A DNA stretch of 64,000 bases from Verrucomicrobiaceae bacterium (GCA_046346695.1 JAXMHS010000004.1:98085-162084), one strand, 5' to 3'; shown: positions 8,591 through 51,500, counted from the first letter of the stretch. Notes: a model not told the origin generated them from the sequence alone. Numbers and translations are program-made.

Positions 8591-10126
8591 ATGACGCAAT
8601 CCAACTCCTCCCGCGGCGCTGTGGCCGCCCTGGTCGCCGCCTTTCTTGGCTGGCTTTTCGACGGCTTCGAAATGGGTTTGTTCCCGCTGATTGGAAAACC
8701 TGCGTTGCAGGACTTGCTGCCCGGAGCGACTGCCAAGGCGCATGTGGACTGGTTCACGGTGATCATCGCCGTCTTCCTCGTCGGCGCGGCGACCGGCGGC
8801 GTGCTGTTTGGCTGGTTGGGTGACAAGCTGGGTCGCGTGAAGGCGATGACGCTGGCGATCTTCACGTATGCGATCTTCAGCGGCCTCTGCGCCTTCGTGA
8901 CGGAAGCATGGCACTTCGCGGGACTGCGTTTCATCGCTTCACTCGGCATGGGCGGTGAGTGGGCGCTTGGCGTGGCCTTGGTGAATGAGATCTGGGGAGG
9001 AAAAAATCGCGCGTGGATCGCTGGCATGATTGGAGCGGCCTCGAACATCGGCTTCCTGCTCACGGGGCTCATCAGCTGGCAGCTCAATGCGAGCTTGGAG
9101 ATCGTTACCGGCTGGATTCACGCGATGGGATTGTCACCGGAGAACACGGATTACCTGCTGCACAACCGCGCCTGGCGTTTCATTGCGGTGAGCAGCGCCT
9201 TGCCCGCCTTGATCAACTTCTTCATCCTGGTCTTCGTGCCCGAGTCCCACAAATGGGAGGAGGAGAAGAAGTCAGGAGGCACGTCTCATTGGGCCACGAT
9301 GGACCTCGTGGGCGTCTTGATAGCCTGCCTCGCCGCTTTGACGATCATCTATGTCTGGTCTCCGCTGTGCGATTGGGGCAATGCGATCGCTGCGGTCGTG
9401 ACAGTCGCAGGACTCGGCATCGCTCTCTGGGGCTATTTGCATCCTGTGCGCCAGTACATGGCACGCTCGGTGGCCGCCGGGGGCACCCAGTCAGGTGATC
9501 ATGGAACCATCATGCGCAATCTGCTTGTCGGGGCCGGACTGGCGGCGGTGGCCTTGCTCGGCACGTGGGGCTCCGCACAGCAGGCAGCGCGCTGGTCGTC
9601 GGACCTTGCTCCGAAGGGTGTTTCGCTTCCGATCATCGATTACGTGGTCATCTCCACGGCGCTGGGCGCCATTTTGGTCACGCTCATCACTCCCTTGGTG
9701 GCGGACAAGCTGGGACGCCGCGTGACCTATACGCTGCTCTGTGTTGCAAGTCTGGCGGTCTCGCTTGGGTTCTTCCAGACAAACGCACCTTTCACCGGAG
9801 ACAGCATTCCGTCCTCCCTGGTGATCAGCGCATTCCTGCTGGGGGGTATCACCGCCTCCTTCTATGGCTTTTTCCCGCTCTACTTCCCCGAGTTGTTCCC
9901 CACCAGCGTGCGTGCGACCGGCCAAGGCTTCTGCTTCAACTTTGGCCGTCTGATCGCCGCCATCGGTGCGCTGCAACTGGGCAATCTGATGACACTCTTC
10001 ACAGGCGAAAAGACCACCGCGCTGCAATCTGCCGCCAATGCCTACTCCGTTCTGTCCTGCATTTATGTCATTGGCATGATTGTGGTGTGGTTCGCCCCCG
10101 AGACCAAAGGACGGGCGCTACAATAA
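8591..10126 (+). CDS. MFS transporter (aromatic acid/sugar-like)
   Basis: GWLFDGFE, GWLGDKLGRV, GMGGEW, ADKLGRR, PELFPTSVRATGQG, PETKGR; about 12+ TM. Confidence 0.92.
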   Translation: MTQSNSSRGAVAALVAAFLGWLFDGFEMGLFPLIGKPALQDLLPGATAKAHVDWFTVIIAVFLVGAATGGVLFGWLGDKLGRVKAMTLAIFTYAIFSGLCAFVTEAWHFAGLRFIASLGMGGEWALGVALVNEIWGGKNRAWIAGMIGAASNIGFLLTGLISWQLNASLEIVTGWIHAMGLSPENTDYLLHNRAWRFIAVSSALPALINFFILVFVPESHKWEEEKKSGGTSHWATMDLVGVLIACLAALTIIYVWSPLCDWGNAIAAVVTVAGLGIALWGYLHPVRQYMARSVAAGGTQSGDHGTIMRNLLVGAGLAAVALLGTWGSAQQAARWSSDLAPKGVSLPIIDYVVISTALGAILVTLITPLVADKLGRRVTYTLLCVASLAVSLGFFQTNAPFTGDSIPSSLVISAFLLGGITASFYGFFPLYFPELFPTSVRATGQGFCFNFGRLIAAIGALQLGNLMTLFTGEKTTALQSAANAYSVLSCIYVIGMIVVWFAPETKGRALQ

Positions 10127-33319: not shown

Positions 33320-33467
33320 GAGATGGAGGGGTTGGGGGAATGTCGCTGCTAATAACGCCGATTCAGTCCAATATTCATCAGGAACCTGATGGTCGTTTCT
33401 GCCTTGGTTTTGGCTTCATCTCTGATCGGCGGCCAGCCGTATCTTGTGCCTTCCTTCATTATTTTTC

Positions 33468-34859
33468 ATGCCCCGCACTGTCCTGCACTGGTTCCGCCGC
33501 GATCTCCGCCTCACCGACAACACCGCGCTGCATCACGCCACGAAGGACGCGGAGCAGGTCATGCCGGTCTATGTCCTGAGCGATTGGAAAAACAGCCACG
33601 GCTGGACCGGCCCGAACCGCCAGCAGTTCCTCTGTGGCAACCTCGAATCCCTCGCGAAAAACCTCGAAACCATCAGCAGCCGCCTCATCATTCGCTGTGG
33701 GAAGGCCGATGCCGAACTGGAGCGCCTCGTTCGCGAGACGCAGGCTGGAGCGATCTACTTCAACCGCGACTACGATCCCTTTGGCCGCGCCATGGAAAAT
33801 AAGATCGCCGCGCTTTGCACGCGTCTCGGCATCGAGTGCCATGCATTCGACGACAGCGTCATGCACGCGCCCGAAACCGTGCTCACCGGCACCGGTCAGC
33901 CGTATCGCGTTTACACGCCCTACTCGAAGAACTGGCTCAATCTCGACAAGGCGGCCCCCCTGCCCCGTGTGGCCAACTTGGGACCGAAAGCCGGTGAAAA
34001 AATCACCAGCCTGCCCCTTCCCACGCTCGCGCATTGGAATCTCCCTGAGCCCACGGCGAACATCGTCGCATCAGGCGAACGTGCCGCCCGCGACCGCATG
34101 AAGCACTTCATCGAAGGCGGCATCCTCCAAGGCTACACCGCGAATCGCAACACGCCGGTGGGTCAAACGACCTCCCTGCTCAGCCAGGATCTGCGCTACG
34201 GCCTCATCGGCATCCGCGAGCTGTATGCGCGATGCGCCGCCCTCGAAAAAGCCAGCACCTACATCAAGGAACTCGCGTGGCGGGAGTTCTACTTCGCCAT
34301 CCTGTGGTTCTACCCGGAGGTCTTCGAGCATGAGTTCGCTCCCGACTGGCGCGGCCTGTCCTGGCCCGGCACCGAGGCCGACTTCCAGCGCTGGGCCACC
34401 GGCACCACCGGCTTTCCCATCGTCGATGCTGGCATGCGCCAGCTCTTGCAGACCGGACTCATGCACAACCGCCTCCGCATGATCACCGCCATGTTCCTGA
34501 CCAAGGATCTGCACTGCGACTGGCGCATGGGCGAGGCCTTCTTCATGCAGCAACTCGTCGATGGCGAAAACGCCAGCAACAACGGCGGCTGGCAATGGTC
34601 CGCCGGCACCGGCGCCGATGCTGCTCCTTACTTCCGCATCCAGAATCCCTGGCTGCAAAGCGCCCGCTTCGATCCCGCGGGCACCTACATCAAGCAATGG
34701 GTGCCCGAACTCAAGGACGTCCCCGCCCCGCTCCTCCACGAGCCACCCAAGCCCGGTCTCCCGCTCGCCCAAGGTTACCCGCTCCCCATGGTCGATCACC
34801 ACACCGAACGCGACCGTTGCCTCGCCATCTTCGCGAAGCACAAGGCGGAGCGGAGTTGA
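33468..34859 (+). CDS. phrB: Deoxyribodipyrimidine photolyase
   Basis: WFRRDLRLTDN, YRVYTPY, TSLLSQDLRYG, ELAWREF, TGFPIVDAGMRQL, MHNRLRM, NNGGWQWSAG. Confidence 0.95.
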   Translation: MPRTVLHWFRRDLRLTDNTALHHATKDAEQVMPVYVLSDWKNSHGWTGPNRQQFLCGNLESLAKNLETISSRLIIRCGKADAELERLVRETQAGAIYFNRDYDPFGRAMENKIAALCTRLGIECHAFDDSVMHAPETVLTGTGQPYRVYTPYSKNWLNLDKAAPLPRVANLGPKAGEKITSLPLPTLAHWNLPEPTANIVASGERAARDRMKHFIEGGILQGYTANRNTPVGQTTSLLSQDLRYGLIGIRELYARCAALEKASTYIKELAWREFYFAILWFYPEVFEHEFAPDWRGLSWPGTEADFQRWATGTTGFPIVDAGMRQLLQTGLMHNRLRMITAMFLTKDLHCDWRMGEAFFMQQLVDGENASNNGGWQWSAGTGADAAPYFRIQNPWLQSARFDPAGTYIKQWVPELKDVPAPLLHEPPKPGLPLAQGYPLPMVDHHTERDRCLAIFAKHKAERS

Positions 34860-35194
34860 TCGGGGAATCCCAGTTATCAGATCGCGGTTCTTGTGGGTTC
34901 ATCAAACCTGCTGGGATGGCCCAATCAAACGGCTTGTCATCGTTGCGTCTAGGCATCCTCCGTTCTTGGGCTGCCGTGCTTCAGATGGACCGCTCTTCGA
35001 GTTTGGGTTCAGGTTTGGGAATCATTTTCACCTTCCAATATCCGCCCACAGCGCGTAAACTGACAATTTTGTTGCCTGAGTACGGCATAGGAGGGTAAAT
35101 CGACACCCATGAACGAGAAATCCTGTACTCAGGCAACAAAAGCACTGGCTATAAAGCTGCTGACAAACACACGAATCTGTTAACCATCCGTACT

Positions 35195-35201
35195 GTTCGC
35201 C
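35195..35201 (+). other. Integron-type R' recombination core (GTTCGCC) opening cassette 1; possible attI remnant upstream
   Basis: Exact complement of the R'' box GGCGAAC that closes cassette 1 at 35800. Confidence 0.65.
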
Positions 35202-35210
35202 TAACTCAAC

Positions 35211-35777
35211 ATGCTGTCAGTGATTCAAGATGCCCTACAACCGCTTGTCGCAGAGGGCTTGATGCCTGGCGTGAGCCTTTGGGGAGCCTCGTTCTCGCCA
35301 TTCGACAAGACCACCGAGTTCCAAGCCTTCCGTCTTCATGGATGGGAGGGAACAGAGCTTCAGATTGGCGCATCAGACGCTATAGATTTCAAGACTACAG
35401 TCCCTGCTTGGCAGTATGAGGAGGATGGCGTCACTTACGATGAGCCAGAGACCATTCAGGAGCACGTATTCCGGTTCCTCGCCATTGAGCCGTTGAACAG
35501 CCGCGACTTGACTATTGCTGCGACACATGAGGTAGCATTGGGCACCGTGGAGGGCATAGATCTCTTGTATGCCAGCTACGAGATTCCTTTCCCCACCGGA
35601 ACTGAGATTCGTCGAGCCGTTGCAGGCCTTCGAGTGCGGATGGCAGAGGGCTACCTCGGAGGACACGAAGCCTCATTTGCCATCATACAGAAGCGGCCTG
35701 ATCACAGGCTTCGTATAGGTCCAGCTAGTCAGATCATGAGTGATTTACCATCACATTTCGAGCCGATTTCCCCATGA
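35211..35777 (+). CDS. Gene cassette 1: hypothetical protein (188 aa)
   Basis: ATG 10 nt after the R' box, followed by attC; atypical codon usage. Confidence 0.75.
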   Translation: MLSVIQDALQPLVAEGLMPGVSLWGASFSPFDKTTEFQAFRLHGWEGTELQIGASDAIDFKTTVPAWQYEEDGVTYDEPETIQEHVFRFLAIEPLNSRDLTIAATHEVALGTVEGIDLLYASYEIPFPTGTEIRRAVAGLRVRMAEGYLGGHEASFAIIQKRPDHRLRIGPASQIMSDLPSHFEPISP

Positions 35778-35799
35778 GCACAACCACCGGACGACCAAC

Positions 35800-35892
35800 G
35801 GCGAACAAAACGGATGCAGGCAACGGCTCGAAGGCTATCTGTCGTGTCAGCAACGTCTCGCGCTCGCCGTCGCCTGATCCGAGACGTTCGCC
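35800..35892 (+). other. attC site 1 (93 bp)
   Basis: R'' GGCGAAC ... R' GTTCGCC; arms CGGAT[G]CAGGCAACGGC / GCCGTCGCCTGATCCG with an extrahelical G. Confidence 0.85.
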
Positions 35893-35909
35893 CAACTCAA
35901 CACGCCACT

Positions 35910-36836
35910 ATGGAGCAACCAGAGTCTTTGCCAGCTTTTGATCCGGTTGCCGCCGATGCGTTCTTTGCTGACCTGATTTCCCGCTATTCGAGTAGCGATG
36001 ACCAAATCATCAAAGATCTGGTGAGTTTTCACCCCCTTACACAGTTCGACGAGTCTGAGTATGTGAGACTACTGAATCTAAGTCTCTCGCTTGATGTCTC
36101 TGAGAAGAAGCGTGTGGTGGATGCCACCCCTACACTTTCGCAGTTTCAGATTGATGAGTTGCTCAAGGTTTTTCGAGAGGAACAGGAGCAGTTTGAGAGT
36201 CTGCGCCCCAAAGAGGGCGAAACCATTTCACAGCTTGAGGAACATAAGAAGACCGAGTGGGTAGCACTCAAGGAACTTTATATTGCAGAGCTCAAATCGA
36301 GGAGAGATGAGAATAGAAGGTCTGCGGAGTCTGCTCCAACAGATGCCGAGGTAAACACCATTCAGGCGTTTCTCAGCCCTTACAATGCTGAGATAGTTCG
36401 AGCATTGGCTCGACGTCCTGCGGACATTTACACACTAACGCCACGACAATTTGAGGTGCTAATGGCTGAGATTCTAAACGATTTGGGTTGGAGCATCGAA
36501 CTTACGCCAGAGTCTAAGGATGGAGGTCGAGATATTATTGCCACGATTCCTTTCGGCTCTTCGAAGCTTCTTGGATTAGTGGAGTGCAAGCGATATTCGC
36601 CCGATCATAAGGTGGGTTTAGAGATTGTTGAGAGATTTGCATATACTGTGAGAGACCGAGACAGGGCTAGCTTTGGCATGTTGGCTACATCATCCTACTT
36701 TACTCAAGGGGCGTGGAGTGCTGCACAACGCCACCAATGGCAGATGCAACTCCACGATTTCGATCACATTTGCCACCTTCTGAAGAATTATGGACATTAC
36801 AAACAAGATGCAAGGATGGCCTGCCCCCGGAAGTGA
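35910..36836 (+). CDS. Gene cassette 2: Mrr-like restriction endonuclease with helical N-terminal domain, 3' end clipped by IS
   Basis: RQFEVLMAEIL..LGW, SKDGGRDIIA, VECKRY (PD-(D/E)xK); the last residues MACPRK are IS-encoded. Confidence 0.85.
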   Translation: MEQPESLPAFDPVAADAFFADLISRYSSSDDQIIKDLVSFHPLTQFDESEYVRLLNLSLSLDVSEKKRVVDATPTLSQFQIDELLKVFREEQEQFESLRPKEGETISQLEEHKKTEWVALKELYIAELKSRRDENRRSAESAPTDAEVNTIQAFLSPYNAEIVRALARRPADIYTLTPRQFEVLMAEILNDLGWSIELTPESKDGGRDIIATIPFGSSKLLGLVECKRYSPDHKVGLEIVERFAYTVRDRDRASFGMLATSSYFTQGAWSAAQRHQWQMQLHDFDHICHLLKNYGHYKQDARMACPRK

Positions 36837-36841
36837 GACAG

Positions 36842-37777
36842 TCAAAAATGTAGTTTCAGCATCCTTGGTTTGTTGATGTTGGGTTTTTCTGTTGCGCTGT
36901 CAAACGCAGCGGAGGTCTCATCGAGCGTAGCGAGATGAGGCCGCAGCGAAGTTTGACAGCGTGCGGCCACCTCCGCCGGGGTTCGGTAGCCCAGCGAGCT
37001 GTGCGGCCGACATTCGTTGTACTCGTGCCGCCAGGCGTCGATGATCACCCTGGCTTCCGCCAGCGTGCCAAAGACTTCGCGGTTGAGGCACTCGTCGCGC
37101 AGCTTGTCGTGGAACGATTCGATATATGCGTTCTCCCACGGCGAGCCGGGCTTGATATAGAGCGTCTTGATGTGCTTCGCTGCGAGCCAGTCCTGGATGG
37201 CATACGCGACGAACTCCGGTCCGTTGTCACTGCGGATGTGCTCGGGCGTGCCGTGCTTGTGCATGGCCTGCTCCAGCACCATGAGCACATCCTGCGCACG
37301 GATCGACCACGCCACATGCGTGGCAAGGCATTGCCGCGTGTGCTCGTCGATGAGCGTCAGGATGCGGAACGCTCCTCCTGATTCGGTCTGGTCCATCACG
37401 AAGTCCCAGCTCCACACCTGGTTGCGCCGTGCGGCGCTCAGACGCTGTGCCTGGGATGGGCCAAGCCTGCGTGTGCGTCGCTGACGCTTGCGCACCTGCA
37501 GCCCTTCGGCACGTCTCACGCGTGCCACGCGCTTGGCGTTGATCCGCCTGCCTTCGCGTCTCAGCAGCGCGGTGATGCGCCGGTAGCCGTAGCGCGGATG
37601 CTGGCGGCTCAACTTCACGATGCGGTTGTTCATCCTCCGGCTGCCTTGACTCACTGCCTTCACGCGATAATAGCCCGAACGTGCCAGCCGCACCGCACGA
37701 CACGCCTGCGTGATCCTGCCAAGACCACTGTCCACCGCGCAGCGTGCCGCTTGGCGTTTGCTCGCCGGGCTCACCAT
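36842..37777 (-). CDS. IS3-family transposase OrfB (DDE integrase core)
   Basis: YGYRRI, WSWDF, IRSDNGPEF, PGSPWENAYIESF, EYNECRPHSSLG. Confidence 0.95.
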   Translation of the reverse strand: MVSPASKRQAARCAVDSGLGRITQACRAVRLARSGYYRVKAVSQGSRRMNNRIVKLSRQHPRYGYRRITALLRREGRRINAKRVARVRRAEGLQVRKRQRRTRRLGPSQAQRLSAARRNQVWSWDFVMDQTESGGAFRILTLIDEHTRQCLATHVAWSIRAQDVLMVLEQAMHKHGTPEHIRSDNGPEFVAYAIQDWLAAKHIKTLYIKPGSPWENAYIESFHDKLRDECLNREVFGTLAEARVIIDAWRHEYNECRPHSSLGYRTPAEVAARCQTSLRPHLATLDETSAAFDSATEKPNINKPRMLKLHF

Positions 37778-38037
37778 TTTTTTGCGTTCACGAACTTCAA
37801 GATGTCGATCTGCACGCTGAGGTCCGCGACGATGCGTTTGAGACGCGCGTTCTCTTCGGCAAGAGCACGCGCCTGCCTCAGCTCATCGACCTGCATCCCG
37901 CCGTATTTGCGCTTCCACCCGTAGTAGGTCTGCTCGCTGATGTTGTGCCGTGCGCACACCTCTTTGACCTTCATCCCACCCTGCGCTTCGCGCAGGATGC
38001 TCACGATCTTCTCCTCACTGTGTCTGCTCTTTTTCAT
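37771..38037 (-). CDS. IS3-family transposase OrfA (HTH)
   Basis: MKKSRHSEEKI..LRE..G..V..VC..H.IS..TYY.WKRKYGGM; joins OrfB by a -1 shift at GCA AAA AAA TGG. Confidence 0.95.
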   Translation of the reverse strand: MKKSRHSEEKIVSILREAQGGMKVKEVCARHNISEQTYYGWKRKYGGMQVDELRQARALAEENARLKRIVADLSVQIDILKFVNAKKW

Positions 38038-38156
38038 GTCGTTCTGTTCTCCTGGTTACGGAGCCAGAACTACATTTTACAACTGTCCTCTTTTCCGGGG
38101 GCAGGCCAAGGACGGGACTGTGGGTGTTTCCCAAGGGAGACATTGGCCATGAAAAG

Positions 38157-38346
38157 GGCGAACAAAGCGCTGGAGGCAACAGCGGGGGCTTGGGTGTCGG
38201 CGATGGTCTTCCGTAGCCCGACCGCAGGTGTCACACATCCTGCTGCCAGCCGCCTTCGCCCCCGGCAGGATGTGCGCCACCTGCTAGCGCCATCCCGTTT
38301 CCACGCTTTCCGCCGCCCCCGCCGTGCCTCAGCTTAATCGTTAGCC
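38157..38346 (+). other. attC site 2 (long, 190 bp)
   Basis: R'' GGCGAAC ... R' GTTAGCC; arms GCT[G]GAGGCAACAGCGGGGGC / GCCCCCGCCGTGCCTCAGC. Confidence 0.8.
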
Positions 38347-38356
38347 GTCACCACGC

Positions 38357-38758
38357 ATGTGGGGAGCACTCCAACACCCAAGACACGTCGAGTTCTATGA
38401 AGAGTTTCACGCTGGCAGGCAGAGTGACGACCAAGACTGGATGCCGATGGTCAGAGCAGTTCAGCATCTTCAGTCGCTTTCAGTCGCGCCCGGCCTTTAC
38501 GCATTCACTTCGCTCTGGCGGTTTCATCTCACGACCGCCCCGGCTTACCAGGAGTGCGACAGTCATTGTTCGGTCACTGTCATTTGGCGGTGGACCGACC
38601 GGCGTTTTCACATTGCGTTTGGTCGGCTCGCAGGCGGCTGGGTGGATGACCGACCACCGGAGCAGATTTGTGATGAATCTGGTTTTGCCGTTGTCATCGA
38701 GCCATTCATTCAGCGACTCTTGGCTTCGTCATCCGAGCATGGGAACCTAGACGGCTAA
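38357..38758 (+). CDS. Gene cassette 3: hypothetical protein (133 aa)
   Basis: ATG 10 nt after R' GTTAGCC; stop TAA lies inside R'' GGCTAAC. Confidence 0.75.
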   Translation: MWGALQHPRHVEFYEEFHAGRQSDDQDWMPMVRAVQHLQSLSVAPGLYAFTSLWRFHLTTAPAYQECDSHCSVTVIWRWTDRRFHIAFGRLAGGWVDDRPPEQICDESGFAVVIEPFIQRLLASSSEHGNLDG

Positions 38759-38814
38759 CCACGAGCGGCAGGCCGTCGCCGTTGCAATCCGACTTGTGGC
38801 CGCCTTCGTTGAGC
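38753..38814 (+). other. attC site 3 (short or degenerate, about 62 bp)
   Basis: R'' GGCTAAC ... R' GTTGAGC; GCGGC/GCCGC and GTCG/CGAC pairing. Confidence 0.55.
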
Positions 38815-38894
38815 TTGGACTTAAGTCAATCCCGTCACACACTGATCGCTCGAATGCTTGCCAGCGATGCCGGCGCGTGCGAGGGCGAATGTGC

Positions 38895-39791
38895 ATGATT
38901 TCTCGCTCTCTCATTGTTTTCGCCGTCGCTCTGATGTCCTCCAGCCTGTGCCCTGCGCAGATTCCCACGCACGAGAACGTCCCCTACGGCACGCATGAGA
39001 AGCAGGTGCTGGATTTCTGGCAGGCGAAGTCGGAGCAGGCGAAGACGCCGCTGCTGTTCTTCGTTCATGGCGGCGGGTGGTTGAACGGAGACAAGGCGAA
39101 TCCGGATTTTTTGGCGAAGTGCCTCGAAAACGGCATCTCGGTCGTCTCGATCAACTACCGCCTCATTTCGGACGCGCAGGCGGCGAAGATCGATCCGCCA
39201 GTGAAGGCGTGTCTGGACGATTCGGCGCGAGCGTTGCAGTTCGTGCGCAGCAAGGCGGACGAATGGCACATCGACAAGGAGCGCATCGGTGGCTGCGGGG
39301 GCTCGGCGGGTGGGTTCACGGTACTGTGGCTGGCGTTTTCACCCGACATGACCGATGCGAAGAGCGCGGACCCGGTTTCACGCGAATCGACCCGGTTGCG
39401 CTGCGTGATGGCCTTTGTGCCGCAGACCACGCTGGATCCGAAGCAGATGCAGGCGTGGATTCCGAACAACACGTATGGCAACCACGCCTTCGGTCTGCCG
39501 AGCATGGACGACTTCGTGGCGAAACGGGACGCGCTGCTGCCGTGGATCGAGCGTTTCTCGCCCTATGCACTCGCCTCGAATGACGATCCGCCGGTGCTGC
39601 TCTTCTACGACAACCCGCCGAACCTCGGCCAGCCCTACAAAGACCCGCCGCACAGCGGAAACTTCGGCGCGGGCATCGCGGAGAAGCTCAAGGCCGTCGG
39701 CATCGAGCACGAGATCAATTACAACAACGATTACGCGCACATGCGCTGGCCGGATTTGTTCGGCTTCATCGCGGAAAAGCTCAAGAAGTGA
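38895..39791 (+). CDS. Secreted alpha/beta hydrolase (esterase/lipase-like)
   Basis: Signal peptide; FVHGGGW, VSINYRL, GGSAGG. Confidence 0.88.
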   Translation: MISRSLIVFAVALMSSSLCPAQIPTHENVPYGTHEKQVLDFWQAKSEQAKTPLLFFVHGGGWLNGDKANPDFLAKCLENGISVVSINYRLISDAQAAKIDPPVKACLDDSARALQFVRSKADEWHIDKERIGGCGGSAGGFTVLWLAFSPDMTDAKSADPVSRESTRLRCVMAFVPQTTLDPKQMQAWIPNNTYGNHAFGLPSMDDFVAKRDALLPWIERFSPYALASNDDPPVLLFYDNPPNLGQPYKDPPHSGNFGAGIAEKLKAVGIEHEINYNNDYAHMRWPDLFGFIAEKLKK

Positions 39792-49132: not shown

Positions 49133-49165
49133 GACGTTGCGTTGCCTGCATCCGTTTTGTTCGTC
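49133..49165 (-). other. Decayed attC half-site, same family as attC1
   Basis: CGAACAAAACGGATGCAGGCAACG (24 nt) identical to 35802-35825, then GCAACGTC as in attC1 after an internal deletion. Confidence 0.7.
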
Positions 49166-49170
49166 CCGCA

Positions 49171-49370: not shown

Positions 49371-49530
49371 ACTTTTGCCTCGGCCAGCGTGGCGAAGACT
49401 TCGAGGTCGAGCAGTTCATCGCGCAGGCGGCTGTTGAAGCTCTCGCTGCAGGCGTTCTGCAACGGGCTGCCTGGCTGGCGATCCATTCGCGCACGGCTTT
49501 GGCGATGAACTCCGGAACGTTGTCGCTGCA
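49371..49530 (-). pseudogene. IS3-family transposase fragment (frameshifted)
   Basis: CSDNVPEFIAKAVREWI then, in another frame, PGSPLQNACSESFNSRLRDELLDLEVFATLAEAKVL. Confidence 0.8.
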
Positions 49531-50828: not shown

Positions 50829-51500
50829 ATGAGCGAACCGAATCCGCGCCGCCCAGGCCCACCACACCATCCCGAAGTGCGGGAAGTGGTGCGTCGGCAG
50901 CGTGAGGTGTCGCAGAATCCAACTCGCGAGGAGCAGAGGGCTGGCTTTCGCGGCTGGAACGAGCGTGGTTACGTCCCGCATCGCGATGAACCGGGCCTGA
51001 CGCAGTTCGTCACCTTCCGTCTGGCCGACAGCTTTCCCGCCGAGCTTCGCGATGAGTGGGAAAAGCTGTTAAAGATCGAGGACGATCGCGAACGCCGCAC
51101 GCAATTGGAGGCGTGGCTCGATCTCGGCCACGGCGTGTGTCATTTGAAGGATGTGCGGATCGCGCAGCTTGTGGCAGAAGCGCTGCGGAAGTTCGACAGC
51201 GAGCGTTACCGCCTGATCGCCTTCACGATCATGCCAAATCACGTGCATGTCTTGTTCGAGGTCGGCGAGACGCCGATGGCGAAGGTTGTGCGTGATTGGA
51301 AAGGCACGACGGCCCGCGCCGCGAACGCACTGTTGGGTCTGACCGGCTCGTTCTGGCAGCAGGATTATTGGGACACCTACATGCGCGATGTCGAACACGA
51401 GGAGCAGACGATTCGTTACATCCGGAACAATCCCGTGAAAGCCGGTTTGGTGAACGACTGGCAGCAATGGCCTTGGACCTACGTGCGCCCCAAGGATTGA
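50829..51500 (+). mobile_element. REP-associated tyrosine transposase (RAYT, HUH/Y1)
   Basis: RGYVPH, QFVTFRLADS, IMPNHVHVL (HUH), WKG.TA, FWQQDYWD, YIRNNPVKAGL; REP-flanked. Confidence 0.92.

Follow-up and report, generated by a model that had tools for sequence, protein, structure and literature searches.

A probable remnant of a chromosomal integron behind phrB in a Verrucomicrobial genome

The window analysed here, a 64,000-nucleotide stretch of DNA from a Verrucomicrobiaceae bacterium, carries between the photolyase gene phrB (33444-34859) and an esterase gene (38898-39791) three co-oriented open reading frames (ORFs) with a GC content of 0.47-0.56, against 0.60-0.65 in the flanks. A first-pass annotation made from the sequence alone had described 35195-38814 as an array of integron cassettes, each closed by an attC recombination site, with no integrase nearby. 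Its three AT-richer ORFs are confirmed (35211-35777, 35910-36836 and 38357-38758), its six boxes (GTTCGCC at 35195, GGCGAAC at 35800, GTTCGCC at 35886, GGCGAAC at 38157, GTTAGCC at 38340 and GGCTAAC at 38753) all lie where it placed them, and an integron-derived array behind phrB is supported by a covariance model, by an attC family linked to integrases and by relatives of the locus. The array does occupy the interval given, but the feature begins before 35195, because an attI region and a stub of the integrase gene intI occupy 34981-35201, and it ends near 38826 rather than 38814, because a degenerate R' box of the third attC lies at 38820-38826. The attI region, the stub and an insertion sequence (IS) inside cassette 2 had been missed. 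From phrB to the esterase gene, the features are as follows:

33444-34859, plus strand: phrB, deoxyribodipyrimidine photolyase (Pfam FAD_binding_7 4e-76, DNA_photolyase 3e-49); chromosomal flank on the integrase side
34860-34980: spacer between phrB and the intI stub, 81% identical to relative L134, with no recognisable integrase coding
34981-35025, minus strand: intI stub, an N-terminal match to the IntI of loci L026 and L033
35026-35201, plus strand: attI and promoter region, ending in the crossover box G|TTCGCC (35195-35201)
35196-35886, plus strand: cassette 1, made of ORF1 (35211-35777, 188 aa) and attC site 1
35800-35892, plus strand: attC site 1 (covariance model R1, 127 bits, E 3e-30; DNA fold)
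35887-38340, plus strand: cassette 2, made of ORF2 (35910-36816, resuming at 38113-38216 after the IS that interrupts it) and attC site 2
36817-38108, minus strand: IS3-family insertion sequence (inverted repeats, Pfam and NCBIfam matches)
38157-38346, plus strand: attC site 2 (190 nt; fold z-score -3.65; 84% identity to L027:809-990)
38341-38826, plus strand: cassette 3, made of ORF3 (38357-38758, 133 aa) and a decayed attC site 3 (38753-38826)
38898-39791, plus strand: esterase (BD-FAE, alpha-beta hydrolase; Pfam BD-FAE 2e-24); chromosomal flank at the far end of the array

For comparison, a genome collection was searched with a 23-nt core of attC site 1, which returned at least 117 loci (numbered L and three digits); a metagenome scan with PhrB supplied relatives whose contigs share the gene order LRR-PSCyt-phrB; and metagenome runs X1-X4, X21, X22 and X24 were read as assembled contigs.

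The start of the array is marked by a region with clear counterparts beside integron integrases. Positions 35026-35201 are 70-88% identical to the intergenic region between intI and the first cassette in 10 loci from metagenome-assembled genomes (MAGs) and in 3 metagenome relatives, so that an attI homologous to the intI-proximal region of 13 other loci heads the array. The 143 nt before cassette 1 (35063-35205) are matched in ten MAG loci, each time one cassette-length upstream of the first attC of the site 1 family, and in L026 and L033 the attI-like element abuts intI. An alignment of eleven attI regions shows strong conservation that ends just after GTTCGCCCAAC, as expected at an attI crossover, and includes a block, GGCTATAAAGCTGCTGACAAAC (35147-35168), that is a candidate promoter. 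The region also holds an AGGAGG followed 12 nt on by a 24-codon ORF (ATG at 35109 to TAA at 35183, all within 35091-35183), whose length and frame are kept in most of the eleven aligned regions, with the ATG absent in three; it could encode a leader peptide like ORF-11 of class 1 integrons or be a coincidence. A 22-bp near-perfect hairpin (35067-35141, z-score -4.4 to -4.8) is specific to the window and the lineage of L134, and was dropped as a functional element because other attI regions are only partly complementary there.

Divergent from the cassettes, as in a canonical integron, a minus-strand ATG at 35025 opens the intI stub, which reads MIPKPEPKLEER, then SI and a stop, its first 12 codons spanning 35025-34990. 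The stub aligns with the IntI N termini of L026 (NIPNPQPKLEERLRGV...) and L033, and its 18-nt core matches better than 500 of 500 shuffles. Neither alignment nor tblastn with nine IntIs revealed an intI pseudogene extending beyond the stub towards phrB, and tblastn with IntI1 and eight Verrucomicrobial IntIs detected no IntI in the window. Stubs of about 25, 30 and 38 codons occur at L041, L022 and L078, respectively, and the difference in their lengths indicates that intI has been truncated recurrently in this group, with varied endpoints. As judged from these alignments, the integrase appears to have been deleted in place, with all but the first 12 codons of intI gone. The first-pass annotation had offered an integrase either elsewhere or lost; with the attI region and the 12-codon stub still in place, it was lost at this locus, so that what remains is a decapitated integron and not cassettes displaced as a block.

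The first attC places the array in a well-populated family. Site 1 consists of R'' GGCGAAC, the spacer AAAA and L'' CGGAT[G]CAGGC, and, on its other side, of L' GCCTGATCCG, the spacer AGAC and R' GTTCGCC. As single-stranded DNA, sites 1 and 2 both form an R stem of 7 bp, then a 4x4 internal loop, then an L stem interrupted by one or more single-base bulges, with fold z-scores of -2.7 and -2.9 for site 1 and -3.65 for site 2. The family of site 1 is about 93 nt long and comprises 219 copies at 117 loci, amounting to 783 kb, nearly all in Verrucomicrobiota MAGs (Verrucomicrobiaceae/Prosthecobacter, Akkermansiaceae and Chthoniobacterales) with a few labelled Planctomycetota. All copies lie on a single strand in each of the 41 multi-copy loci, at a median spacing of 630 nt. 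Exact matches to the 23-nt core also occur in L040, L066, L100, L022, L024, L047 and L055, MAGs labelled Pirellulaceae, Gemmatales, Victivallales or 'Akkermansia muciniphila' (environmental bins), which reflect either transfer of cassettes between taxa or the mis-binning or mislabelling of short array contigs.

Integrases accompany this family. A tblastn search with IntI1, which served as a lead only, found full-length relatives of 41-55% identity next to site 1 repeats, and all five neighbours scanned passed the NCBIfam 'integron integrase' model TIGR02249 at 311-412 bits against a cutoff of 265. In 17 loci an intI gene lies 0.5-3.7 kb from the nearest attC of the family, and in 15 of the 17 it diverges from the array. 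A covariance model, R1, was built from 92 distinct aligned copies (alignment A1) with the window left out; with it, site 1 reaches 127 bits (E 3e-30) on the plus strand and 31 bits on the minus strand, which bears out the attC predicted there, and the rest of the window has no other convincing match.

The stretch 35796-35897 is, in addition, a high-copy repeat: it reaches a depth of about 400-1000 where the neighbouring ORFs have about 9, and its other copies have other flanks; in X1-X4 (wastewater, activated sludge) the family as a whole reaches some 50-100 times the depth of the surrounding unique sequence. Some contigs carry two attCs head to tail that share only CAAC (joints 35896->35800 and 35896->38159), which would be cassettes of little beyond an attC. 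That these joints were variants of the array lacking a cassette was considered and rejected, as other copies of the repeat are assembled head to tail there.

The other two sites belong to different lineages of attC and differ in preservation. Site 2 comprises R'' GGCGAAC and L'' CGCTG[G]AGGCA[A]CAGCGGGGGC on one side and L' GCCCCCGCCGTGCCTCAGC and R' GTTAGCC on the other, and includes an extra inner hairpin of about 63 nt (38224-38284) that is present in the copies of the window and of L027. It is 84% identical over 182 nt (E 5e-52) to L027:809-990, an element flanked by attCs of the site 1 family, and has shorter, 129-nt relatives in L021 (7528-7656, downstream of an IntI) and in L030. Between site 2 and these shorter relatives the stems have changed in a compensatory manner, CAGCGGGGGC/GCCCCCGCCG against CCGCCGGGGC/GCCCCGGCGG and CGCTG/CAGC against CACTG/CAGT, and site 2 is a member of a second attC family of these arrays. 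Site 3 is a decayed copy of the attC that accompanies ORF3 homologues elsewhere. An X21 contig that is 99.7% identical to cassette 3 has 13 nt of L'' (GCGGCAGCAAACG, after 38764) that the window does not, and there they restore the L'' arm; the window copy looks like the product of a slippage deletion between GCGGCAG repeats. Alignment with intact relatives also reassigns its boxes: GTTGAGC at 38808, which the first-pass annotation had taken for R', corresponds to L', and R' is the degenerate CTTAAGT at 38820-38826. Cassettes 1 and 2 were not detected alongside cassette 3 in X21, X22 or X24, where coverage is low and too thin to conclude from.

The register of the boxes links the sites to the cassettes between them. 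Neither GTTAGCC nor GGCTAAC occurs a second time in the 64 kb, and, as had been claimed, the R'' that closes a cassette is the exact complement of the box that opens it in all three cassettes of the window. Of 34 adjacent pairs in arrays elsewhere, 23 have an R'' that exactly complements the preceding R', where random pairing gives 13.1 +/- 2.6, and at L130 and L135, where the box at the attI junction is GTTCGGC, the first attC starts with GCCGAAC, carrying the covarying base as predicted. RNAalifold leaves the R boxes of the site 1 family unpaired, as is to be expected when every R' box is part of the cassette that follows. Complementarity of R'' with the opening box is the signature of IntI-mediated insertion of circular cassettes. 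The boundary of cassette 3 is marked more directly still. In L124, L125/L126 and L122/L123 similarity to the window sets in precisely at a GTTAGCC-type box, 10 nt upstream of the ATG of ORF3, extends across the ORF and continues into an attC common to them (R'' GGCTAAC, L'' GCT[G]CAGCGA[A]CCCGGCG, and R' GTTAGGC in L124), while the sequences upstream are unrelated. This onset of homology at a GTT box is direct evidence for a cassette boundary.

The order LRR-PSCyt-phrB is kept in the metagenome relatives L130-L148. Those that resemble the window beyond phrB are as follows:

L130, PhrB identity 91%: attI, a 103-aa ORF, an attC of the site 1 family (114 bits), a 172-aa ORF and an esterase 87% identical to that of the window
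L134, PhrB identity 84%: attI, then a different first cassette
L135, PhrB identity 84%: attI, then a different first cassette

ORF1, ORF2, ORF3 and IntI are all absent from these three, and L131-L133 have no attI. The variable cassette content expected on the phrB side among relatives was thus found, and since the relatives share attI after phrB and carry other cassettes, the platform is old and fixed at the locus and its cargo is variable. The junction of phrB, spacer, stub and attI is common to the window and L134; a second, shorter junction is common to L130 and L135. In either pair the first cassettes differ, each joined precisely at G|TT, behind one shared intI deletion junction. L130 also has a stretch of imperfect tandem repeats (9480-9790, with units such as GGGTTGATGGGCAAACCCAGCCGGGTTTGCTGGCAC) that separates its last cassette ORF from the esterase gene and has no counterpart in the window.

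Several observations weigh against reading the locus as a former integron. The remnant of intI is just 12 codons, beyond which local alignment to IntI-bearing loci is insignificant (52 of 1000 shuffles were as good), and no strict sigma-70 consensus promoter pointing into the cassettes was found. Neither recombination nor circular cassettes were seen among the assembled contigs. The family-specific model R1 misses sites 2 and 3, and the fold of site 3 is no better than that of shuffled sequence (z-score about 0), so that the attC architecture claimed for three sites holds for sites 1 and 2, with their folds and array-borne homologues, and for site 3 only by way of its decayed homology. R1 likewise detected no attC near homologues of ORF1 (L120) or of ORF3 (L121-L126), except for a weak match in L124. 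The extrahelical base adds a further point. The G reported as extrahelical in sites 1 and 2 is indeed bulged on the top strand, where it is invariant throughout the 92-copy alignment of the site 1 family, and the recombining bottom strand therefore carries a C on its 3' half, where G is usual. The position of this C is canonical, with T-N5/6-C geometry measured from the TTTT spacer. Natural attCs with C at the extrahelical position are known from Larouche and Roy, and IntI1 is efficient on T-N6-C sites, natural and engineered (PMC3053210), which puts the C within the known range of variation. The minus strand of site 1 also folds more stably than the plus strand (-25.9 against -22.7 kcal/mol), and the minus-strand fold of site 2 has a G-T pair that is an A-C mismatch on the other strand.

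Taken with the attI region, the integrase-linked family, the register and the relatives, 34981-38826 very probably represents a sedentary integron of a Verrucomicrobial chromosome, reduced to a remnant behind phrB. An attI region remains, as do the opening 12 codons of a divergent intI, and behind them lie three cassettes that each start at a G|TT crossover box and end in an attC of their own. We infer that IntI inserted the cassettes by attI x attC recombination via the folded bottom strand (minus, extrahelical C), and the cassettes would be transcribed from a promoter within the attI region. The IS3-family element entered cassette 2 later, and in the third attC 13 nt of the L'' arm are missing, as is the G of the R' box. 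With most of intI deleted, the array would no longer drive its own rearrangement; sites 1 and 2 still look usable by an IntI supplied from elsewhere, and site 3 does not.

This last property raises the possibility, to which we give some weight while thinking it unlikely, that the platform is no fossil and that cassettes still enter and leave the orphan attI, moved by an IntI that is encoded elsewhere in the genome and acts in trans. The different first cassettes joined at G|TT behind one deletion junction in the window and L134, and likewise behind another in L130 and L135, are what such exchange would produce, sites 1 and 2 are structurally intact, and the attC family is abundant in the same samples. 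Extended to the several Verrucomicrobiaceae lineages in which an integrase-less attI is fixed after phrB, the idea would tentatively make this attI a 'satellite' docking site served by IntI in trans. The type of junction is, however, discordant with similarity in phrB, as L130 is the closest relative in phrB and has the other junction; homologous recombination could therefore have moved deletion alleles onto already diverged arrays, and for the same reason such a spread is inseparable from cassette turnover after the loss of intI. The decay of site 3 and the persistence of the IS in cassette 2, which was not purged, also speak against continued service.

It is very improbable that the locus is instead a true cluster of attC sites lacking integron integrases (CALIN) that never had an integrase, its cassettes having moved in as a block by rearrangement, IS activity or secondary-site insertion from a parent integron elsewhere. 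IS3-family elements and fragments do lie in and near the region, half an attC lies at 49136-49166, and most CALINs are without nearby intI pseudogenes: of 279 CALINs, just 15 had one close by (Cury et al. 2016, PMC4889954), in a search that required more than 50% profile coverage and by which a stub like that of the window would consequently have gone uncounted. A moved block does not account for the full attI region and first 12 intI codons that precede the array in canonical divergent orientation, or for the same attI after phrB in three syntenic relatives. We regard as scarcely credible the remaining alternative, that the palindromes are terminators or intergenic repeats of the repetitive extragenic palindrome (REP) or miniature inverted-repeat transposable element type in an ordinary genomic island with coincidental box complementarity, for although site 1 is high-copy in wastewater metagenomes (the 50-100-fold flank depth) and its head-to-tail pairs on some contigs recall REP clusters, its copies sit in groups that share one strand and the spacing of cassettes, beside bona fide integron integrases, rather than being dispersed in either orientation and unlinked to a recombinase, R'' covaries with the preceding R' and not with its own, homology between related cassettes starts exactly at the GTT box, and T-tract terminators were not found.

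Within the decapitated integron, cassette 2 records a later insertion. The IS (36817-38108, minus strand, 1292 bp) carries orfA (38037-37771) and orfB (37777-36842), whose products match Pfam HTH_Tnp_1 and rve and the NCBIfam IS3 transposase model (254 bits against a cutoff of 160). It ends in 21-nt inverted repeats, TGGCC...GGCCA, and is flanked by a 4-bp target duplication, AGGA (36813-36816 and 38109-38112). A homologue of ORF2, P0070, is 73% identical and sets the frame across the IS with its end, ...KTGLWVFPKA (...YKQNAKTGLWVFPKA). Its C terminus matches only when the 4-bp AGGA duplication is removed, which rejects a target duplication of 3 or 5 bp and indicates that ORF2 originally ran from 35910 through 38113-38216 into site 2. 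In X1-X4 the depth of the IS is 2-3 times that of its flanks, and a different right flank occurs in X3; given both, the IS is multi-copy and probably active in the population.

The cargo is largely without recognisable domains. ORF1 has no match in Pfam, NCBIfam or PADLOC and only 4 homologues among 5.8 billion proteins, and a look-up of its exact protein sequence found no record. ORF2 encodes an Mrr-type restriction-endonuclease-domain protein (Pfam Mrr_cat 7e-22, in the part upstream of the insertion), with weak PADLOC matches to type IV methyl-directed restriction endonucleases (3e-10), and from this domain is a candidate phage-defence gene; P0070 has no recognisable cassette context. Phage-defence genes have been reported from integron cassettes, and Mrr-like cargo is consistent with such reports. 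ORF3, whose TAA stop falls inside R'' of site 3, has 64 homologues and no match in Pfam, NCBIfam or PADLOC, and its confident structure model (predicted local distance difference test score 90.8) has no significant match in the PDB, the best (E 0.18) being a Vibrio cassette protein. In two NCBI Verrucomicrobia MAGs (L122:5001-5402 and L123:3019-3420) an ORF3 homologue stands alone, accompanied by an attC of its own (R'' GGATAAC ... R' GTTACCG), with an SNF2 helicase gene on one side and a PHP-domain gene on the other, and looks like a single cassette inserted at a secondary site. In L121 (1439-8381) an ORF3 homologue stands in a run of about 15 small co-oriented ORFs that includes T6SS_Tdi1_C and DMP19 domains and has no recognisable attCs; the run may be an immunity-gene cluster, a context that hints at an immunity-like protein for ORF3.

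Outside the array, half an attC of the site 1 family lies on the minus strand at 49136-49166 (GACGAACAAAACGGATGCAGGCAACG, then unrelated sequence), with a TGA a few nucleotides upstream on the same strand and a fragment of an IS3-type transposase (...ESFNSRLRDELLDLEVF..., 49400-49486) beside it. It may be a second, more decayed cassette remnant, about 10-14 kb from the array. An ORF at 50829-51500 contains the motif PNHVHVL and by eye resembles IS200/REP-associated tyrosine transposases.

The locus documents the decay of a chromosomal integron in an under-sampled phylum through integrase deletion, IS insertion and attC erosion, and the conserved Verrucomicrobial attC family and attI region together offer a means to mine cassettes from wastewater and freshwater metagenomes. 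If servicing in trans were true, an orphan attI could stay functional without a resident integrase, which would bear on the origin and persistence of CALINs.

Integrons in Verrucomicrobia, CALINs and the idea that CALINs originate by integrase loss have all been described (Cury et al. 2016, PMC4889954), as have decayed chromosomal integrases (Xanthomonas work cited in bioRxiv 10.1101/2025.06.18.660453), and the element adds one further member. It fits the CALIN definition in its attC sites, of which two or more lie in a span of 4 kb, and in the lack of a neighbouring intI, and like CALINs is a small array (three cassettes) of mostly unknown function that contains no resistance genes; it differs in keeping a recognisable attI and a 5' intI stub, and falls short of a complete integron, which has a functional intI adjacent to attI, by its intI of 12 codons. 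With the 5' conserved segment of class 1 integrons (intI1-attI1-Pc) it shares a divergent intI, an attI ending in GTTRRRY and cassettes, and the IntIs beside the site 1 family are 41-55% identical to IntI1, whereas in the window intI is deleted, attI is unrelated to attI1 and the element is not on a transposon. The Vibrio cholerae superintegron, with its Vibrio cholerae repeats, resembles it in having a lineage-wide conserved attC family (here about 93 nt, at about 85% mean column identity) and long same-strand arrays; the window differs in having one copy of its family together with two attCs of other families, an extrahelical C rather than G on the bottom strand, and no integrase. Its closest analogue is the Xanthomonas integron downstream of ilvD, in which frameshifts, stops or large deletions have often inactivated intI (Gillings et al. 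2005, in the summary of bioRxiv 10.1101/2025.06.18.660453). Both are sedentary at a fixed chromosomal locus across related species, with large intI deletions and with arrays that vary between lineages and carry mostly unknown cargo. The window differs in phylum (Verrucomicrobiota), anchor gene (phrB) and attC family, and, whereas Xanthomonas strains with the same intI lesion are described as usually having identical arrays, loci of the window's group that share a junction carry different first cassettes.

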